From a virus: a stretch of DNA of 64,000 nucleotides. The translations under genes and the position numbers were made by a program. The stretch covers positions 7,006 through 71,005 of IMG/VR virus record IMGVR_UViG_3300030450_002194; one strand, written 5' to 3'. Below, piece after piece: positions 25,504 to 28,912 of this stretch (the stretch's first letter is position 1; every line of letters begins with the position of its first letter). The notes under the pieces were generated by a model. It searched no databases and had not been told where the DNA came from. It saw only the letters and a program-made list of their open reading frames with translations.

Positions 25504-26252
25504 GAGGTTTCAAACAAAGCGAAACCATATGGTAATGAGGTTTTTTCGGGGATACAAGGAAACAAGGCTAGAAAAACACGCGAATTTTCCTTAGTCTAAA
25601 ATCTTAGTGCGTTTTCTGCACCTGTATTTCCAGTGCATTTGCTATTTAACATAGCCTTATTTTACGCTCATTACCATATGGTTATATTAAAGGGATATAG
25701 TCATGGTATCACAGTAAAATGGGCTGGTGCAGACTAGCGTAAATCGTTAGGCTGCACAATTTGCATTAAGCAAAGCCCTTGGGATACCATGTCTAGATAA
25801 CGTAATAATAATCCCAACAGCCAAGTGAGGCACTATCATAAAGGACACTGGACTAAAGACGAGTTACTTACACAAGTCCAGTGCTACCAGTAATTGACGT
25901 TAAACCATGATTTCATCATTGGCTATACATAGACATACAAGCCTGGGCTTAATGCCCTTAACGGCATATATGTCTGTCTATTCCATCAATTACCGGTTGC
26001 ACAGGCCACGCGTAACTAACTCCTCTTTACTCGCTGATGTCCTTAACCGTACCATATGGGTGTAACCCTTAAGGGAACGGAAATTATTTTTTGTGCTTCG
26101 GACATTGTTCTACACTTCCTTTGCTTCTACTGTAACTTAGTTAGATGCTTAATGCATCTCTCGCAGGAAGAGATAGAACCTGCCTCCGCAAAAAAATAAG
26201 TTCCTTCTTCGACCCATATGGTGGCATCAAGTAGGAGGTGATTGATTGAGAA

Positions 26253-26447
26253 TCATTCAAGCCAATTGTCGTCCATAGGAGGGAAGGCTCTTAGAATCGC
26301 AGAGTCTTTCTCTGGGCCGTCAGGCAAAGATTCAAGAAGCCTAATCTTCTTATGGTCTACATATGTTATGTATACGATGAACATCATCATTACTCCTAAC
26401 AATACAATCACTGGCATTACTTCATTTAACCCTAATTCTGTGGTCAT
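26253..26447 (-). CDS. 64 aa single-pass membrane protein (cassette)
   Basis: ATG 16 nt after CCATATGG; VMPVIVLLGVMMMFIVYITYV. Confidence 0.6.
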   Translation of the reverse strand: MTTELGLNEVMPVIVLLGVMMMFIVYITYVDHKKIRLLESLPDGPEKDSAILRAFPPMDDNWLE

Positions 26448-26662
26448 GTCTGCTGACGCATGACCATATGGTAGAGGGTCAATTAAGTGCCGGAGGGACT
26501 TAATGTAAGCCATGCGGTCCTCGACCAGATAAAAATGGGGCACATTGTAAGATTGTATTATACATCACAAACTACACACCTTCGGTGCCGTTTGCTCAAA
26601 ATAATATCAATCATTTTGGCTTAATGCCAAACCATATGGAATTAGAAAAGATACAAGATGGT

Positions 26663-26851
26663 TTAGAAGCCATCGTCAGGAGGTGTCCAATAGCAATATG
26701 CTATTTCGCTTCTAGTCATATTATCAAATGGTATGGAACAATCATACCTGGGGTCATAGATAGACAGATATAGCATATATGCTAACAGGGCAAACGTTAG
26801 TAGGCTTATAAGCCAAAGTTGTTTCTTTTCGTCAAGATTCCATAAGGTCAT
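26663..26851 (-). CDS. 62 aa single-pass membrane protein (cassette)
   Basis: ATG 17 nt after CCATATGG; LWLISLLTFALLAYMLYLSIY. Confidence 0.6.
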   Translation of the reverse strand: MTLWNLDEKKQLWLISLLTFALLAYMLYLSIYDPRYDCSIPFDNMTRSEIAYCYWTPPDDGF

Positions 26852-27198
26852 TTGACGCTAACGCATGACCATATGGTAGTTAAAGTAGTTATAGGCGTTA
26901 CGAGAAACGAGAGCCGCTTACACTTAACTTGCCACATGAGGTACGTATCGCGGAAAACTATCCACTTTGTTCTTGACTTAATGTCAAGTTCCGTTTTCCA
27001 CTCACGACCATATGGGCAAGTAGAATGAGAATGGAGCGTTAAAGGTGCGAAATCTACAATACTGGCAAGTATTTTCTGATACAGGCATTAAGCCGGTGCT
27101 ATGCACTATCTTACCTACAATACTTGCCAGGGCAGGTAGATTTCTTCCTTTATGACCCTATGGGGGCTACACCCATATGGTAGGTTACTTTGTTAAAG

Positions 27199-27232
27199 AC
27201 TACCTTAAATAATCCATCAAATATAGAGATAC
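27199..27232 (+). promoter_or_regulatory. archaeal-type promoter, copy 1
   Basis: ACTACC-TTAAATA-ATCCATCAAATATAGAGATAC, nearly identical to 28913-28946. Confidence 0.7.
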
Positions 27233-27273
27233 GGTGGCGACCGAACCCACCTATACTCACAGGAGTGATAAAT

Positions 27274-27813
27274 ATGGTTGATTACAGCATGGAAGACAGC
27301 GTATGGAGCAACAAGAAAGAACACATTGCCGAGTGGTTTACTGCAAACCCAGAGCATGAAGGTAGGAGAGTCATTGTGGACGGATTGTTCGCAATAGGCG
27401 ATTCTCAGCCAGACCTCAGAAAGAGGCACTGGTCGAGCATTAGCGGAGTATTCGCAGATTTGGATAACTCCCCTATTGGCGGTGGAAGGAAGTCACTAAT
27501 GACAACCGCCGTTAAGTCCGACTTTGACAAGTACCTCGGTACATTCAGAGAGAACATGGCAACAGTCGTGTACCCACTGGTTTCCGGTACTGCAAAGACA
27601 CACGGAAAGTCCGGTGGCATCCTTTACGCCACTATGGAAGATGGGGCATCCGAGTACGCAGACGATATGACGAAGAAAGAGAGGCTATTCTTGAATGCCG
27701 CTTTCAACGCATACACCACGAACAACACCGAGAAGAGGTATTTCTGGGACGGTTCGTACAACGAGGATGGTTATCCAGTAATAACCGATAATGGGGGTCA
27801 AGAAGAGGAATAG
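27274..27813 (+). CDS. HGKS-family protein of unknown function (array cassette)
   Basis: GGAGTGA upstream of ATG 27274; W...GD...R...HGKSGG...YA pattern shared with 24926-25435. Confidence 0.8.
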   Translation: MVDYSMEDSVWSNKKEHIAEWFTANPEHEGRRVIVDGLFAIGDSQPDLRKRHWSSISGVFADLDNSPIGGGRKSLMTTAVKSDFDKYLGTFRENMATVVYPLVSGTAKTHGKSGGILYATMEDGASEYADDMTKKERLFLNAAFNAYTTNNTEKRYFWDGSYNEDGYPVITDNGGQEEE

Positions 27814-27890
27814 GGGTGTTTGGTCGCCACCCTCCCTTCGGGGACTTGTTTACAAAGTTATTGTCCATATGGTAATGGGCTTTGTAAACA

Positions 27891-27923
27891 TTACCTTAAA
27901 TAGTCCATATAATGTATAGAATC
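27891..27923 (+). promoter_or_regulatory. archaeal-type promoter, copy 2
   Basis: TTACC-TTAAATA-GTCCATATAATGTATAGA. Confidence 0.65.
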
Positions 27924-28029
27924 AGACGGGGCAACCAATACCCATTAACACAGTATATTGCCGCCGAGCATTCAATGCCTGTGAGGGGTCACTTGGTTTA
28001 ATGCCCCGTCTACCCAATGGGTGAATCTC

Positions 28030-28230
28030 ATGTCAGAAGATAAAACAATTATTCAACAGATTAACGAACCAAAGTATGTTATTGAATTAGCACACAAGAA
28101 ATCAGGGTCAGCCCTTGTGCTATCAATCAACAAATTGAGAGTATCGGGTGATAATCTGGAACAGGTCATGTCTGAGTTAAATTCAGCATTAAATGACTAT
28201 CTTGGCATAACTGGGGATGACACCAGTTAG
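28030..28230 (+). CDS. 66 aa protein, possible HicB-like fold (cassette)
   Basis: GGTGA upstream; VSGDNLEQVMSELNSALNDYL. Confidence 0.65.
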   Translation: MSEDKTIIQQINEPKYVIELAHKKSGSALVLSINKLRVSGDNLEQVMSELNSALNDYLGITGDDTS

Positions 28231-28435
28231 TCAGGTATTGATTACAAAGTTCAATACCATATGATAGTAACGTAGTGGTGTTTGTAAACTAAGTCGCGGT
28301 AACTTGTTAGCGTGGCTACTGTGAGTGACGCATTAAGCGTCAGTTAAACGTAGCGAGTATAGGGTAGTTTGTAAACAACTATCTGATTGCTCACGTATTC
28401 ACAATCATATGGTGGTAAAGATAGAAGAATCTATG

Positions 28436-28567
28436 TCAGTCGGTGAAACCGAGTGTCTTGCGCATATGGAGATACTGTTCTTCATCAGACAGTATCTCGT
28501 ACAAGATATTACTCAGTGTTTCAGCGCATTCAAATAGTTCTTCCTTGGTAACCTTATTTCCGGTCAC
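28436..28567 (-). CDS. 43 aa acidic peptide (cassette)
   Basis: GTG-ACC 17 nt after CCATATGG with the same TCATGCGTTAGC leader; MTGNKVTKEELFECAETLSNILYEILSDEEQYLHMRKTLGFTD. Confidence 0.45.
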   Translation of the reverse strand: MTGNKVTKEELFECAETLSNILYEILSDEEQYLHMRKTLGFTD

Positions 28568-28912
28568 TTATTGCTAACGCATGACCATATGGTGACGAGT
28601 GGGAAAACAGTAGTTACATTAAGTAAAAAGCATAGCGTCAGTTTTCGTGCGCTGTGACCTAATGAGGCAAGTTAAGCGAGCGGCTACATCACATGTACGC
28701 CTACGTACTTATACTACCATATGGTTATTAATCACGCTTGCGAGAATTGCAAACGTCAGGTGTTAATTTGCCAAGTATGCGCATTAAGCGCAGAACTAAG
28801 TGTCAGGTAAATTAACTTGCAATCCGAAGCAAGGGTTATAGTGTTTAGCGGTAATCACCTTAAGGTTCTTAACGCTTCGCTAAACCATATGGTAGTGAAA
28901 CTTTGTGTTAGC

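Follow-up and report, generated by a model that had tools for sequence, protein, structure and literature searches.

Three very small open reading frames lie on the minus strand of a viral DNA stretch (the window: 64,000 nucleotides, positions 7,006 to 71,005 of IMG/VR record IMGVR_UViG_3300030450_002194), each preceded by the same short sequence and each bounded by a palindrome. The locus raises the question of whether these frames are genes and, if so, what the shared sequence at their heads does. A sequence-only reading had described it as a fixed leader in front of units that resemble promoterless gene cassettes.

The virus and its host

The virus belongs to the magroviruses, tailed viruses that infect marine group II archaea. 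On comparison of its portal protein with cultured phages, all ten records matched were haloarchaeal tailed viruses and a Methanomassiliicoccales virus. Two ATP-dependent DNA ligases are encoded (9099–10622 and 59505–62024), one of them within the structural module. Magroviruses are described as having a halovirus-like morphogenetic module, a genome of ~100 kb and a pair of ATP-dependent ligases, of which one lies in the structural module (Philosof 2017; PMC5434244); the portal matches, the ligases and relatives of 96 and 86 kb all agree with this description. As the virus infects archaea, its promoter and translation logic is to be read as archaeal. The main text of PMC5434244 mentions no palindromes, repeats, non-coding or intergenic regions, promoters or hypervariable regions, and the only such features in the main text of PMC11706807 are repeats, meaning terminal repeats. 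A literature search for CCATATGG in phages returned nothing on this topic by title or abstract.

Layout of the three cassettes

The window has three and only three occurrences of the 20-mer CCATATGG-TCATGCGTYAGC, against 0 expected, and every one is on the minus strand. The pattern CCATATGGTCATGCGTYAGC matches with 0 mismatches at 26452–26471, 26857–26876 and 28573–28592, again on the minus strand throughout; allowing up to three mismatches gave no fourth match in the window, and matches were found in 0 of 100 shuffled sequences. The entire virus record (71,005 bp) holds the same three copies only. Spacers of AGAC (4 nt), GTCAA (5 nt) and AATAA (5 nt) lead to the starts ATG-ACC (26447), ATG-ACC (26851) and GTG-ACC (28567) of cassettes 1, 2 and 3, respectively, so that all three leader copies and starts are where they had been placed. 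Each frame had also been said to stop before the next palindrome, and does so by 39 nt for ORF1 (26214), 31 nt for ORF2 (26632) and 31 nt for ORF3 (28405, the degenerate TCATATGG). The features are as follows.

26464–26471, no strand: junction palindrome CCATATGG, head of cassette 1
26253–26447, minus: ORF1, 64 aa, family F1; N-terminal membrane helix, conserved LLESLPDGPEKDSAILRAFPP motif, acidic tail
26214–26221, no strand: junction palindrome, tail of cassette 1
26869–26876, no strand: junction palindrome, head of cassette 2, common to the divergent neighbour unit
26877–26887, plus: TATA-like TAGTTAAAGTA of the divergent unit, 1 nt from the head palindrome of cassette 2
26663–26851, minus: ORF2, 62 aa, family F2; membrane helix and conserved PRYDCSIPFxNMTxSEIAxCY
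26632–26639, no strand: junction palindrome, tail of cassette 2
28585–28592, no strand: junction palindrome, head of cassette 3
28436–28567, minus: ORF3, 43 codons, acidic, without a membrane segment; candidate gene
28469–28498, minus: 10-bp hairpin in ORF3, the apex of a long fold-back across most of unit 3
28405–28412, no strand: degenerate junction palindrome TCATATGG, tail of cassette 3
28585–28716, minus: unit on the strand of cassette 3 and upstream of it; TATA-like TAGTATAAGTA at 28706–28716

Two genes and a candidate gene

The prediction of two membrane peptides and an acidic 43-residue ORF agrees with hydropathy: ORF1 and ORF2 each have a single strongly hydrophobic 19-residue stretch (Kyte–Doolittle maxima of 2.55 and 2.01), and ORF3 is acidic-rich with no hydrophobic stretch (maximum 0.35). 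The probability of the frame staying open by chance, estimated by shuffling each unit with its composition preserved, was p = 0.010 for ORF1, 0.021 for ORF2 and 0.085 for ORF3. Conservation of the frames in homologous units, to which the sequence-only reading had looked, is found for ORF1 and ORF2, which keep their frames in divergent units under purifying selection (dN/dS of 0.32–0.39 in all six F1 pairs and 0.27–0.28 in all three F2 pairs), whereas ORF3 has a near-identical copy only. ORF1 has ten protein homologues, in which the C-terminal motif is invariant. Judged by these comparisons, both ORF1 and ORF2 are genuine genes that encode single-pass membrane peptides.

For ORF3, a HMMER search against 1.84 billion representative proteins returned its own cluster only, with no divergent relative, and a word-based search found one near-identical protein, differing by one residue; because this copy is all that was found elsewhere, ORF3 is treated here as a candidate gene. 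The overlap of ORF3 with a long hairpin, also reported previously, is borne out by the 10-bp hairpin within it: unit 3 folds with −59.5 kcal/mol against −36.7 kcal/mol in shuffles (z = −6.1) and resembles non-coding fold-back modules, and an antisense frame of 42 codons is likewise open. Read by eye, the residue pattern of ORF3 is amphipathic and helix-like. Pfam and PHROGs gave nothing for any of the three ORFs, look-alikes in the ESM Atlas (scores of 0.82–0.85) belong to unnamed clusters only, and a search for related loci with the ORF1 family alignment gave a single partial match of 15 residues, to an unrelated 125-kb contig.

A hairpin with the start codon in its 3′ arm

The leader and start region together contain the inverted repeat GGTCAT...ATGACC, so the leader and ATG-ACC form a single stem-loop; as GGUCAU pairs with AUGACC, the start codon constitutes the 3′ arm. 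The leader is fixed in sequence, as had been proposed, but the element is a hairpin with the start codon as its 3′ arm and not a linear leader.

26442–26465, minus: head hairpin 1, GGUCAU(G)-C-GUCA-GC-bulge-(C)AUGACC; ATG 26447–26445 in the 3′ arm; −9.1 kcal/mol
26846–26870, minus: head hairpin 2, GGUCAU-GC-GUUA-GC-GUCAA-AUGACC; ATG 26851–26849; −7.3 kcal/mol
28562–28586, minus: head hairpin 3, GGUCAU-GC-GUUA-GC-AAUAA-GUGACC, with a U·G closing pair; GTG 28567–28565; −7.2 kcal/mol

The last two G's of the palindrome at the junction serve as the anchor of the hairpin. Its lower stem has 4–6 bp and is topped by a GC clamp of 2 bp and a tetraloop of the form GNYA, with an AU-rich bulge of 3–6 nt in the 3′ strand; the predicted stability of the hairpin in the three cassettes is −7.2 to −9.1 kcal/mol. 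No anchored hairpin is present at their tails. Marine viral and metagenome contigs yielded 41 distinct copies of this loop class; 38 of them close into a hairpin, and two of the three non-closing leader copies head a non-coding fold-back unit. Pairing is kept in four different stems (GGUCAU/AUGACC, GGGU/RCCC, GCUCAU/AUGAGC and GCUCC/GGAGC), there is one stem variant without the start codon in the stem, and the clamp has switched once from G-C to A-U. We counted 273 Watson–Crick pairs, nine G·U, one A·C and eight others, using purpose-written scripts because MAFFT left the variable bulge ungapped. Perfect anchored stems of at least 5 bp occur at 61 of 342 palindrome sides, against 6.2 in shuffles and 17 in a shifted control. 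Relatives with genes of only 64–77% identity share the leader at 100% over 23 nt. The excess of G·U over A·C (9:1) and the kept pairing in four stems suggest an RNA structure on the coding strand; the alignments thus point to a hairpin selected as a coding-strand structure, most simply as RNA.

Several further structural readings were considered. Extension of the stem into the CCAUAU half of the palindrome was rejected, the mean run over 35 units being 3.20 pairs against 3.19 in shuffled sequence; such an extension is seen only in W2, L012 and L140. In folds of whole units the two flanking palindromes pair with each other, competing with the hairpin for its two G's. A K-turn has a 3-nt bulge followed by tandem sheared G·A pairs; here all 38 closing copies have the G-C and C-G pairs of the clamp after the bulge, and a K-turn or L7Ae-binding hairpin was dismissed, as was a bulge–helix–bulge, to which the clamp and loop do not fit by eye. 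A search of 22000–34000 with Rfam cmscan (E ≤ 1) gave no family match over the three units; it found only tRNA and a sub-threshold manA match at 28947–29180.

Association of the hairpin with genes

We surveyed 40 distinct units with the exact leader. All of the loci were retrieved via the leader itself, and the survey therefore bears on whether the leader precedes an ORF, not on whether such ORFs always carry the leader. It does so in 30 of the 40 units, which have a recognisable gene with the hairpin at its 5′ end; seven have no start codon at the hairpin, and three are cut by the end of a contig. An ORF of at least 27 aa begins at the hairpin codon and fills the unit in 15 cases, 13 of them with a membrane-like segment. 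Another 15 units have an ORF of 7–18 codons, with a stop codon that in 12 cases overlaps or directly adjoins the ATG of an acidic 10–11-mer. There are accordingly two modes: either the 3′ arm is the start codon (ATG, GTG or TTG), as in ORF1–3, or the gene lies just downstream, with a Shine–Dalgarno-like GGAGG and the gene for an acidic peptide of ~10 aa within a few bases of the hairpin. In 35 closing copies of 38 distinct leader 36-mers (de-duplicated separately from the 40-unit set) the triplet at the start position is ATG in 24, GTG in four, TTG in four and another in three. The hairpin heads at least six unrelated families of tiny proteins; leader copies L144 and L177 head units without an ORF.

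Exchange of cassettes at the palindromes

The description of the units as cassettes is supported by variants that lack or invert units at the palindromes where units end. L128, a relative of ~80% nucleotide identity, has none of the three cassettes, and three neighbouring units are inverted in it at palindromes. A population variant in DNA run X2 has a joint 28583>28716, with ten shared letters, at which exactly the unit beside cassette 3 is missing; the same unit (28585–28716) is absent from contig L141, and in further X2 contigs the sequence diverges at the palindromes at 28257 and 28405. Both orientations of units are found inside the window. With the genome backbone as reference, W, L010 and L012 have their leader cassettes on the minus strand, whereas those of L011 are on the plus strand. 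These genome comparisons indicate that related viruses gain, lose and invert cassettes at the palindromes.

No Phage_integrase, Resolvase or Y1 transposase domain was found in this record, and no Phage_integrase or Resolvase in five relatives (two of them at least 92% complete); in a control, PF00589 was detected in 14 of 14 known genomes. The gene for a conserved helix-turn-helix protein flanks the array (23648–24208). Cultured phages showed no nucleotide match to the array. Scanning viral contigs by 15-mers returned at least 119 stretches, which we regard as chance matches because they are without palindrome arrays, save for known contigs (L004 and L005 among the matches listed).

Promoters and expression

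The two expressed neighbour genes have RNA contigs with ends at 25475 and 27235, which places these ends 25 and 27 nt away from the middle of TTATATA and TTAAATA; the RNA contigs of runs X18, X19 and X20 leave the three cassettes uncovered and are silent on the expression of these. No TATA box like those of the neighbour cassettes was found within the three units, nor is there a fixed TATA box upstream of the leader, where the flanks are heterogeneous. It is plausible from the sequence that the three cassettes are promoterless. The upstream neighbours of leader cassettes include co-oriented gene tails, divergent promoter heads and fold-back units; no one route of transcription accounts for every case. 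As the virus is archaeal, readings as an N4-like hairpin promoter and as Bacteroidota or sigma-70 promoters were dropped.

Proposed explanation and its alternatives

The reading that we favour, with moderate confidence, is that these are cassettes of small accessory genes in a palindrome-joined magrovirus array, headed by an RNA hairpin that contains the start codon, transcribed from outside and controlled by the hairpin in translation. As the cassettes seem to have no TATA promoter of their own, transcription would have to come from outside, either as read-through or from a neighbour's TATA box acting in reverse. The hairpin would set how the 5′ end of the mRNA is read, through sequestration of the start codon or the binding of a factor. 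Counting against this reading are the variety of upstream neighbours, the three leader copies that do not close, the seven units without a start codon at the hairpin, the fold-back of unit 3 with its ORF of no divergent relative, and the competing pairing of the flanking palindromes.

Leaderless mRNAs are common in archaea, and the same region might instead be a compact leaderless-mRNA promoter, in which an AT-rich TATA-like element immediately before the palindrome and a start at the first base of the 3′ arm would enclose the palindrome and the conserved 12 nt, and the inverted repeat would act in DNA only. The geometry is suggestive: the 3′ arm begins 23–25 nt after the start of the palindrome in the GGUCAU form and 23 nt after it in the GGGU form, about where a start would be expected if a TATA box ended at the palindrome, an AU-rich bulge lies just before the arm, and many upstream flanks end in TTATTA, TTCTA or CTTTAACTA. 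Against it, eight of the 35 closing copies have GTG or TTG, which are poor codons for leaderless starts. The upstream flanks are also unconserved by column counts, those of cassettes 1 and 3 being GC-rich without a TATA-like box; the compensatory changes and the G·U to A·C ratio require both arms on one strand; and the conserved GGAGG of the short units lies downstream of the hairpin, as expected if the hairpin is transcribed. In favour of such a promoter, cassette 2 has TAGTTAAAGTA next to its head palindrome on the opposite strand; archaeal TATA boxes are described as able to fire both ways, with starts ~50 bp apart (PMC6640164), which would put a start 5–6 nt before the ATG at 26851. Overall we consider a leaderless promoter unlikely.

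Somewhat less likely still is a DNA-level junction element, in which the hairpin is one sequence family among the junction hairpins on the flanks of all palindromes and serves cassette exchange or insulation (for example, the site of a recombinase or DNA-binding protein) and the start codon has been co-opted. The hairpin occupies exactly the position of the CTTTG-loop hairpins, which are found at both ends of promoter-bearing cassettes and upstream of TATA boxes, and so outside the mRNAs of their own cassettes; cassettes are inverted, moved and lost at the palindromes, and the helix-turn-helix gene flanks the array. In the units examined, however, the GNYA loop class lies at the head of the ORF, in the same orientation, whenever a recognisable ORF is present, and was not seen at a cassette tail; the G·U bias is strand-specific, and the recombinase searches described above were empty for this record and, for Phage_integrase and Resolvase, for the five relatives. 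The units could also be non-coding fold-back RNAs with incidental ORFs, which we regard as improbable and as concerning mainly unit 3. There the strong fold, the weakly unlikely open frame (p = 0.085), the open antisense frame and the single relative of ORF3, one residue away, all fit, as do the ORF-less units behind the L144 and L177 leaders; the helix-like pattern of ORF3 and the presence of ATG, GTG or TTG at the start position in 32 of 35 closing copies argue otherwise. For units 1 and 2 a non-coding reading is refuted by the purifying selection on F1 and F2 and their conserved frames.

If the favoured reading of externally transcribed, hairpin-headed cassettes is extended, the GNYA-tetraloop hairpin might be a portable translation-start module, a conserved RNA operator that some factor of the virus or its host binds or processes, through which any promoterless mini-gene would be expressed from transcripts that cross the joint, whether these are read-through products or were started in reverse from a neighbour's TATA box. 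Combined with invertible joints this would make a plug-and-play expression system whose products, small membrane and acidic peptides, would manipulate the uncultured host. We offer this extension as speculation, with low confidence.

Significance and comparison with known systems

Magroviruses rank with the most abundant viruses in the surface ocean; both they and their hosts are uncultured, and almost nothing is known of the ways in which these viruses express or exchange accessory genes. A structure of 25 nt that remains identical when the surrounding genes fall to ~65–75% identity is a concrete, testable regulatory element, and it flags real micro-genes of 10–64 codons, a size that routine annotation easily misses.

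Hydrophobic single-pass peptides (28–64 aa) with a start buried in 5′ mRNA structure recall type I toxin–antitoxin systems of the hok/sok kind, although no antisense RNA gene was identified here and the hairpin also heads genes for acidic decapeptides; to our knowledge, such systems have not been described in archaea. The replicase operator hairpin of MS2 holds a start codon and is bound by the coat protein. It is likewise a short bulged stem-loop with a conserved tetraloop and the initiation codon in its 3′ strand, but here the host is archaeal, one hairpin serves many unrelated genes and one stem variant lacks the start codon.

Integron cassettes share the single small ORFs, mostly promoterless in integrons and plausibly so here, the structured repeat boundaries and the arrays of variable content. 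They differ in having the IntI tyrosine recombinase (PF00589 had 0 matches in this record and its five relatives, two of them at least 92% complete) and in attC, an imperfect inverted repeat of ~57–141 bp at the 3′ end of the cassette, where the magrovirus units have an exact 8-bp palindrome and a hairpin of ~25 nt at the 5′ end of the ORF; the magrovirus cassettes also occur in both orientations, with no common Pc promoter seen. The PeSL (promoter-early stem-loop) cassettes that T4-type phages have in their hyperplastic regions, as outlined in the accounts of Arbiol et al. (2010; PMC2839356) and Comeau et al. (2014; PMC4122927), are similar in being small accessory genes in a hypervariable region, bounded by a short repeated stem-loop regulatory motif at which relatives show insertion, deletion and replacement, as L128, the X2 joint and L141 do here. 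In those accounts, however, PeSL is a sigma-70 promoter with a terminator, whereas the neighbour cassettes here use TATA boxes and the three studied have no visible promoter; PeSL exchange is by homologous recombination over the whole motif, whereas the joint here is an invariant perfect palindrome of 8–10 bp; and the magrovirus units, in an archaeal virus, are also inverted and, in the three cassettes, carry a start-codon hairpin. T4 PeSL and integron cassettes are thus the closest analogues of the array, which is a member of neither class; what is new is an apparently promoterless, hairpin-headed class added to a palindrome-joined cassette array.

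Leader cassettes and array

The 20-mer that joins the junction palindrome to the sequence after it, CCATATGG-TCATGCGTYAGC, occurs three times as an exact copy in the window, always on the minus strand, and these are the only copies in the complete 71 kb virus record. At up to three mismatches the window has no further match, and none of 100 shuffled windows gave one. Each copy of this leader is followed, after a spacer of 4, 5 or 5 nt in cassettes 1, 2 and 3, respectively, by a start triplet and ACC.

Leader cassettes in the window
26452-26471, minus: leader of cassette 1, exact match
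26447, minus: ATG-ACC, start of ORF1
26857-26876, minus: leader of cassette 2, exact match
26851, minus: ATG-ACC, start of ORF2
28573-28592, minus: leader of cassette 3, exact match
28567, minus: GTG-ACC, start of ORF3
28469-28498: 10 bp hairpin inside ORF3

ORF1, ORF2 and ORF3 have 64, 62 and 43 codons, which leaves 39, 31 and 31 nt between their stops and the next palindrome; with unit interiors shuffled, the p values for open-frame length are 0.010, 0.021 and 0.085. ORF1 and ORF2 each encode one strongly hydrophobic stretch, while the ORF3 peptide is acidic and has none. The sequence-only reading, which had described three leader-headed mini-ORFs ending short of the next palindrome, two of them membrane-type and the third a 43-codon acidic peptide overlapping a hairpin, is thus correct.

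The palindrome CCATATGG has 23 copies in the window against about one expected, all within 24804-31284, a stretch that also holds about four degenerate copies. The GC skew flips at this array, with a minus-strand replication block (DNA polymerase, ligase, ribonucleotide reductase) to its left and a plus-strand structural block (terminase, portal) to its right. Among 50,697 cultured phage records, the portal matches only six Haloarcula viruses, two haloviruses and two Methanomassiliicoccales virus records, at 24-31% identity. Two ATP-dependent DNA ligases are encoded, one of them within the structural block; the genomes of relatives are 86-96 kb, and the DNA runs containing the stretch are all marine. 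These features agree with magroviruses as outlined by Philosof et al. (2017; PMC5434244), and the virus is therefore to be read by archaeal rules. No published description of the palindrome or array was found in the papers searched.

A conserved gene at 23648-24208 (minus) flanks the array here and in the relatives L010, L011 and L012; its product combines a helix-turn-helix at the N terminus (weak GcrA/HTH_38 matches, phrog_323) with a phrog_1485 domain at the C terminus, and is a candidate palindrome binder. Many proteins outside the array in the flanks of L009, L010, L011, L012 and L013 start with M-x-W-x-x-[ILV]-[ILV]-K, as had been noticed for the structural block of the window.

The array also contains about 15 fold-back units within 25674-31276, of 130-240 bp, in both orientations and without a long ORF, each with a covarying stem topped by a constant C-ATTAA-G loop. 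Two homologous ones, 26869-27007 and 28585-28716, are in opposite orientations and each shares a palindrome with a leader cassette. One lineage (L009, L137, L156, L160, L166) has, in place of these fold-backs, many short units with G-runs, for example GGGAGGGTGGG or GGGCGGTGTGGGTGGG, possible G-quadruplex formers. A plus-strand stretch at 28947-29180, with a homologue in L011, gives a sub-threshold Rfam match to manA (41.9 bits, where the gathering score is 55.2; E = 3.9e-8). It lies within a cassette that has a TATA-type head of its own (TTAAGTAGTCT at 28919) and ends in a T6 tail; a manA-like RNA would be unusual in an archaeal virus.

The leader and start codon form one hairpin

GGTCAT is the reverse complement of ATGACC, so that the leader and ATG-ACC form a single hairpin, with ATG-ACC as the 3' arm and a 5' arm that opens with the two G's ending the palindrome. 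Across ten arrays, perfect stems of at least 5 bp are anchored in this way at 61 of 342 palindrome sides, compared with 6.2 in shuffles and 17 in a shifted control, and nearly all fall into two loop classes, CTTTG(T) in the majority and GCGTYAGC in seven. The exact 20-mer is present in five other viral contigs and 47 metagenome contigs. Over 23 nt the leader shows 100% identity in relatives that share 64-77% identity in their coding genes. It matches no Rfam family.

When related forms are included there are 41 distinct hairpin sequences, 38 of which close. Their lower stem measures 4-6 bp and their 3' side carries an AU-rich bulge of 3-6 nt; a 2 bp GC/GC clamp (G-C replaced by A-U once) and a tetraloop (GUUA 27, GUCA 7, GCUA 3, GCCA 2, GAAC 2) complete the structure. 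The lower stem has four forms: GGUCAU/AUGACC, GGGU/ACCC or GCCC, GCUCAU/AUGAGC and GCUCC/GGAGC. The last two alter the final letter of the palindrome, and the partner base is changed to compensate. The stems contain 273 Watson-Crick pairs, nine G.U, one A.C and eight other mismatches; the excess of G.U over A.C indicates that the structure forms on the coding strand, most simply as RNA. Predicted stabilities for hairpins 1-3 of the window are -9.1, -7.3 and -7.2 kcal/mol.

Units behind the hairpin

Forty distinct units headed by the exact leader were compared. In 15 of them the hairpin codon opens an ORF of 27-64 codons that stops a little ahead of the palindrome closing the unit (by 9-39 nt for exact palindromes); 13 of these ORFs encode a membrane-like segment. 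Another 15 units are short (105-120 bp), and the hairpin codon opens an ORF of 7-18 codons. In 12 cases the stop of this ORF overlaps (as ATGA) or directly adjoins the ATG of a second ORF, which has 10-11 codons, encodes an acidic peptide (e.g. M-K-Y-x-S-D-E-D-D-E) and has a GGAGG-like sequence before its ATG. Seven units have no start codon at the hairpin (L010, L144, L148, L151, L165, L168, L177) and three are truncated by the contig end. The GGGU-stem variant, seen in nine units, carries no start codon in its stem; its hairpin leads straight into GGAGG and an acidic decapeptide gene of that same kind. A set de-duplicated differently from the 40 units has 38 distinct leader 36-mers, of which 35 close; in these 35 the start position is ATG in 24, GTG in four, TTG in four and another triplet in three, with no CTG; within peptide family F4 it is ATG, GTG or TTG depending on the contig. 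This usage, together with the codon-less GGGU stems, means that the triplet acts as start codon for the ORFs that need one there, while the hairpin itself is independent of it.

Family F1 (ORF1) has four DNA members and ten protein hits, with an invariant LLxSLPDGPEKDSAILRAFPP block, variable hydrophobic helices and acidic tails; its dN/dS is 0.32-0.39 (six of six pairs). Family F2 (ORF2) has three DNA members, a conserved PRYDCSIPFxNMTxSEIAxCY block and a dN/dS of 0.27-0.28 (three of three pairs). Judged by these substitution patterns, ORF1 and ORF2 are shown to be coding, and their frames stand as originally proposed. ORF3 has a single relative differing by one residue, and a full HMMER pass over 1.84 billion representative proteins returned nothing beyond it. 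Unit 3 folds as a long hairpin (z = -6.1) and its antisense frame is likewise open; ORF3 stays a candidate gene.

Many proteins encoded in the window array and in L009-L012 have acidic C-terminal tails (...EEE, ...DEDDE, ...DDGF, ...YYTEE), among them the 10-residue peptides, ORF1, ORF2 and unrelated small ORFs of relatives; these tails may be a shared C-terminal signal.

Promoters and transcripts

RNA contigs from three metatranscriptome runs in two studies cover, within 23000-33000, only the two array genes of about 170-180 aa, 24926-25435 (minus) and 27274-27813 (plus), and 56 nt over a tRNA gene (23025-23080). Contigs end at 25475 (runs X18 and X19), 25 nt from the centre of TTATATA (25497-25503), and at 27235 (X18, where adapter letters precede the end), 27 nt from the centre of TTAAATA (27205-27211). 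Archaeal transcripts usually start at such a distance from the TATA box, which bears out the archaeal reading of the virus. Both genes share an HGKS(G) motif and EEE(E) ends and are conserved in relatives, with no Pfam or PHROG family. The mapped 5' end of the 27274 mRNA, GGUGGCGACC (27233-27242), is complementary to GGUCGCCACC just past the stop codon (27816-27825), so that the transcript could form a panhandle.

A scan found TATA-like boxes at fixed distances from palindromes in neighbouring cassettes and none inside cassettes 1, 2 and 3.

TATA-like boxes
27205, 27896, 28919, plus: neighbouring cassettes
25503, 25649, minus: neighbouring cassettes
26877, plus, and 28716, minus: directly beside palindromes

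A third type of head has TAGTRTAAAG within 1-3 nt of the palindrome, a TATA-like box at the position expected for a BRE. This head occurs at 26877-26887 (plus), at 28706-28716 (minus) and in several relatives, with many palindromes of L011 and L012 among them.

The upstream neighbours of leader cassettes vary by contig (co-oriented gene tails, divergent promoter heads, fold-back units). As the RNA contigs do not reach the cassettes, we infer routes of transcription into cassettes 2 and 3 from the TATA-like boxes of their neighbours. Cassette 3 lies downstream of a same-strand unit with such a box, and cassette 2 is back to back with a unit that has its box 1 nt away from the palindrome they share. 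According to Grunberger et al. (2019; PMC6640164), TATA boxes in archaea can fire bidirectionally, with starts about 50 bp apart; by analogy, the start for cassette 2 would lie a few bases before its ATG.

Gain, loss and inversion

Cassettes 1-3 are all absent from L128, a relative that is about 80% identical to the window in nucleotides and 95% identical in the amino acids of a conserved array protein. Three stretches of the window are inverted there with breakpoints at palindromes (27167-27875, 27865-28263 and 28879-29333), and 28257-28412 is relocated with its orientation unchanged. At up to four substitutions, the leader was found in none of six further relatives identified through the conserved array protein, two of these loci being short fragments. 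A contig from DNA run X2 joins 28583 to 28716 with ten shared letters and thus lacks exactly the unit adjoining cassette 3; the independent metagenome contig L141 has the identical adjacency. Other X2 contigs switch to different sequence at the palindromes at 28257 and 28405. The virus record encodes no Phage_integrase, Resolvase or Y1 transposase domain, and in five relatives neither Phage_integrase nor Resolvase was found.

Interpretation and comparison with known systems

The best-supported account, which we hold to be somewhat more probable than all others combined, is that promoterless mini-genes carry a conserved RNA stem-loop at their 5' end. The hairpin would either supply the start codon or precede a ribosome-binding site, and its most likely role would lie in gating translation, or else in defining or protecting the mRNA's 5' end. 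The leader could instead be a compact promoter for leaderless mRNAs, which is unlikely, or an element acting purely on DNA at the junctions, which is more doubtful still; the strand-specific G.U bias, the compensatory stem changes and the constant orientation at the head of the ORF oppose both. That the units are non-coding is the least probable reading and concerns essentially unit 3; selection on the ORF1 and ORF2 families speaks against it.

The nearest known systems are the promoter-early stem-loop (PeSL) cassettes of T4-type phages, as presented in PMC2839356 and PMC4122927, and integron cassettes, with which the array has in common a variable content and breakpoints at a repeated structured motif. 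However, it does not have the sigma-70 promoter-terminator composite described there for PeSL and, unlike integron cassettes, it has neither IntI nor attC and is mixed in orientation. The array thus fails the defining features of both.
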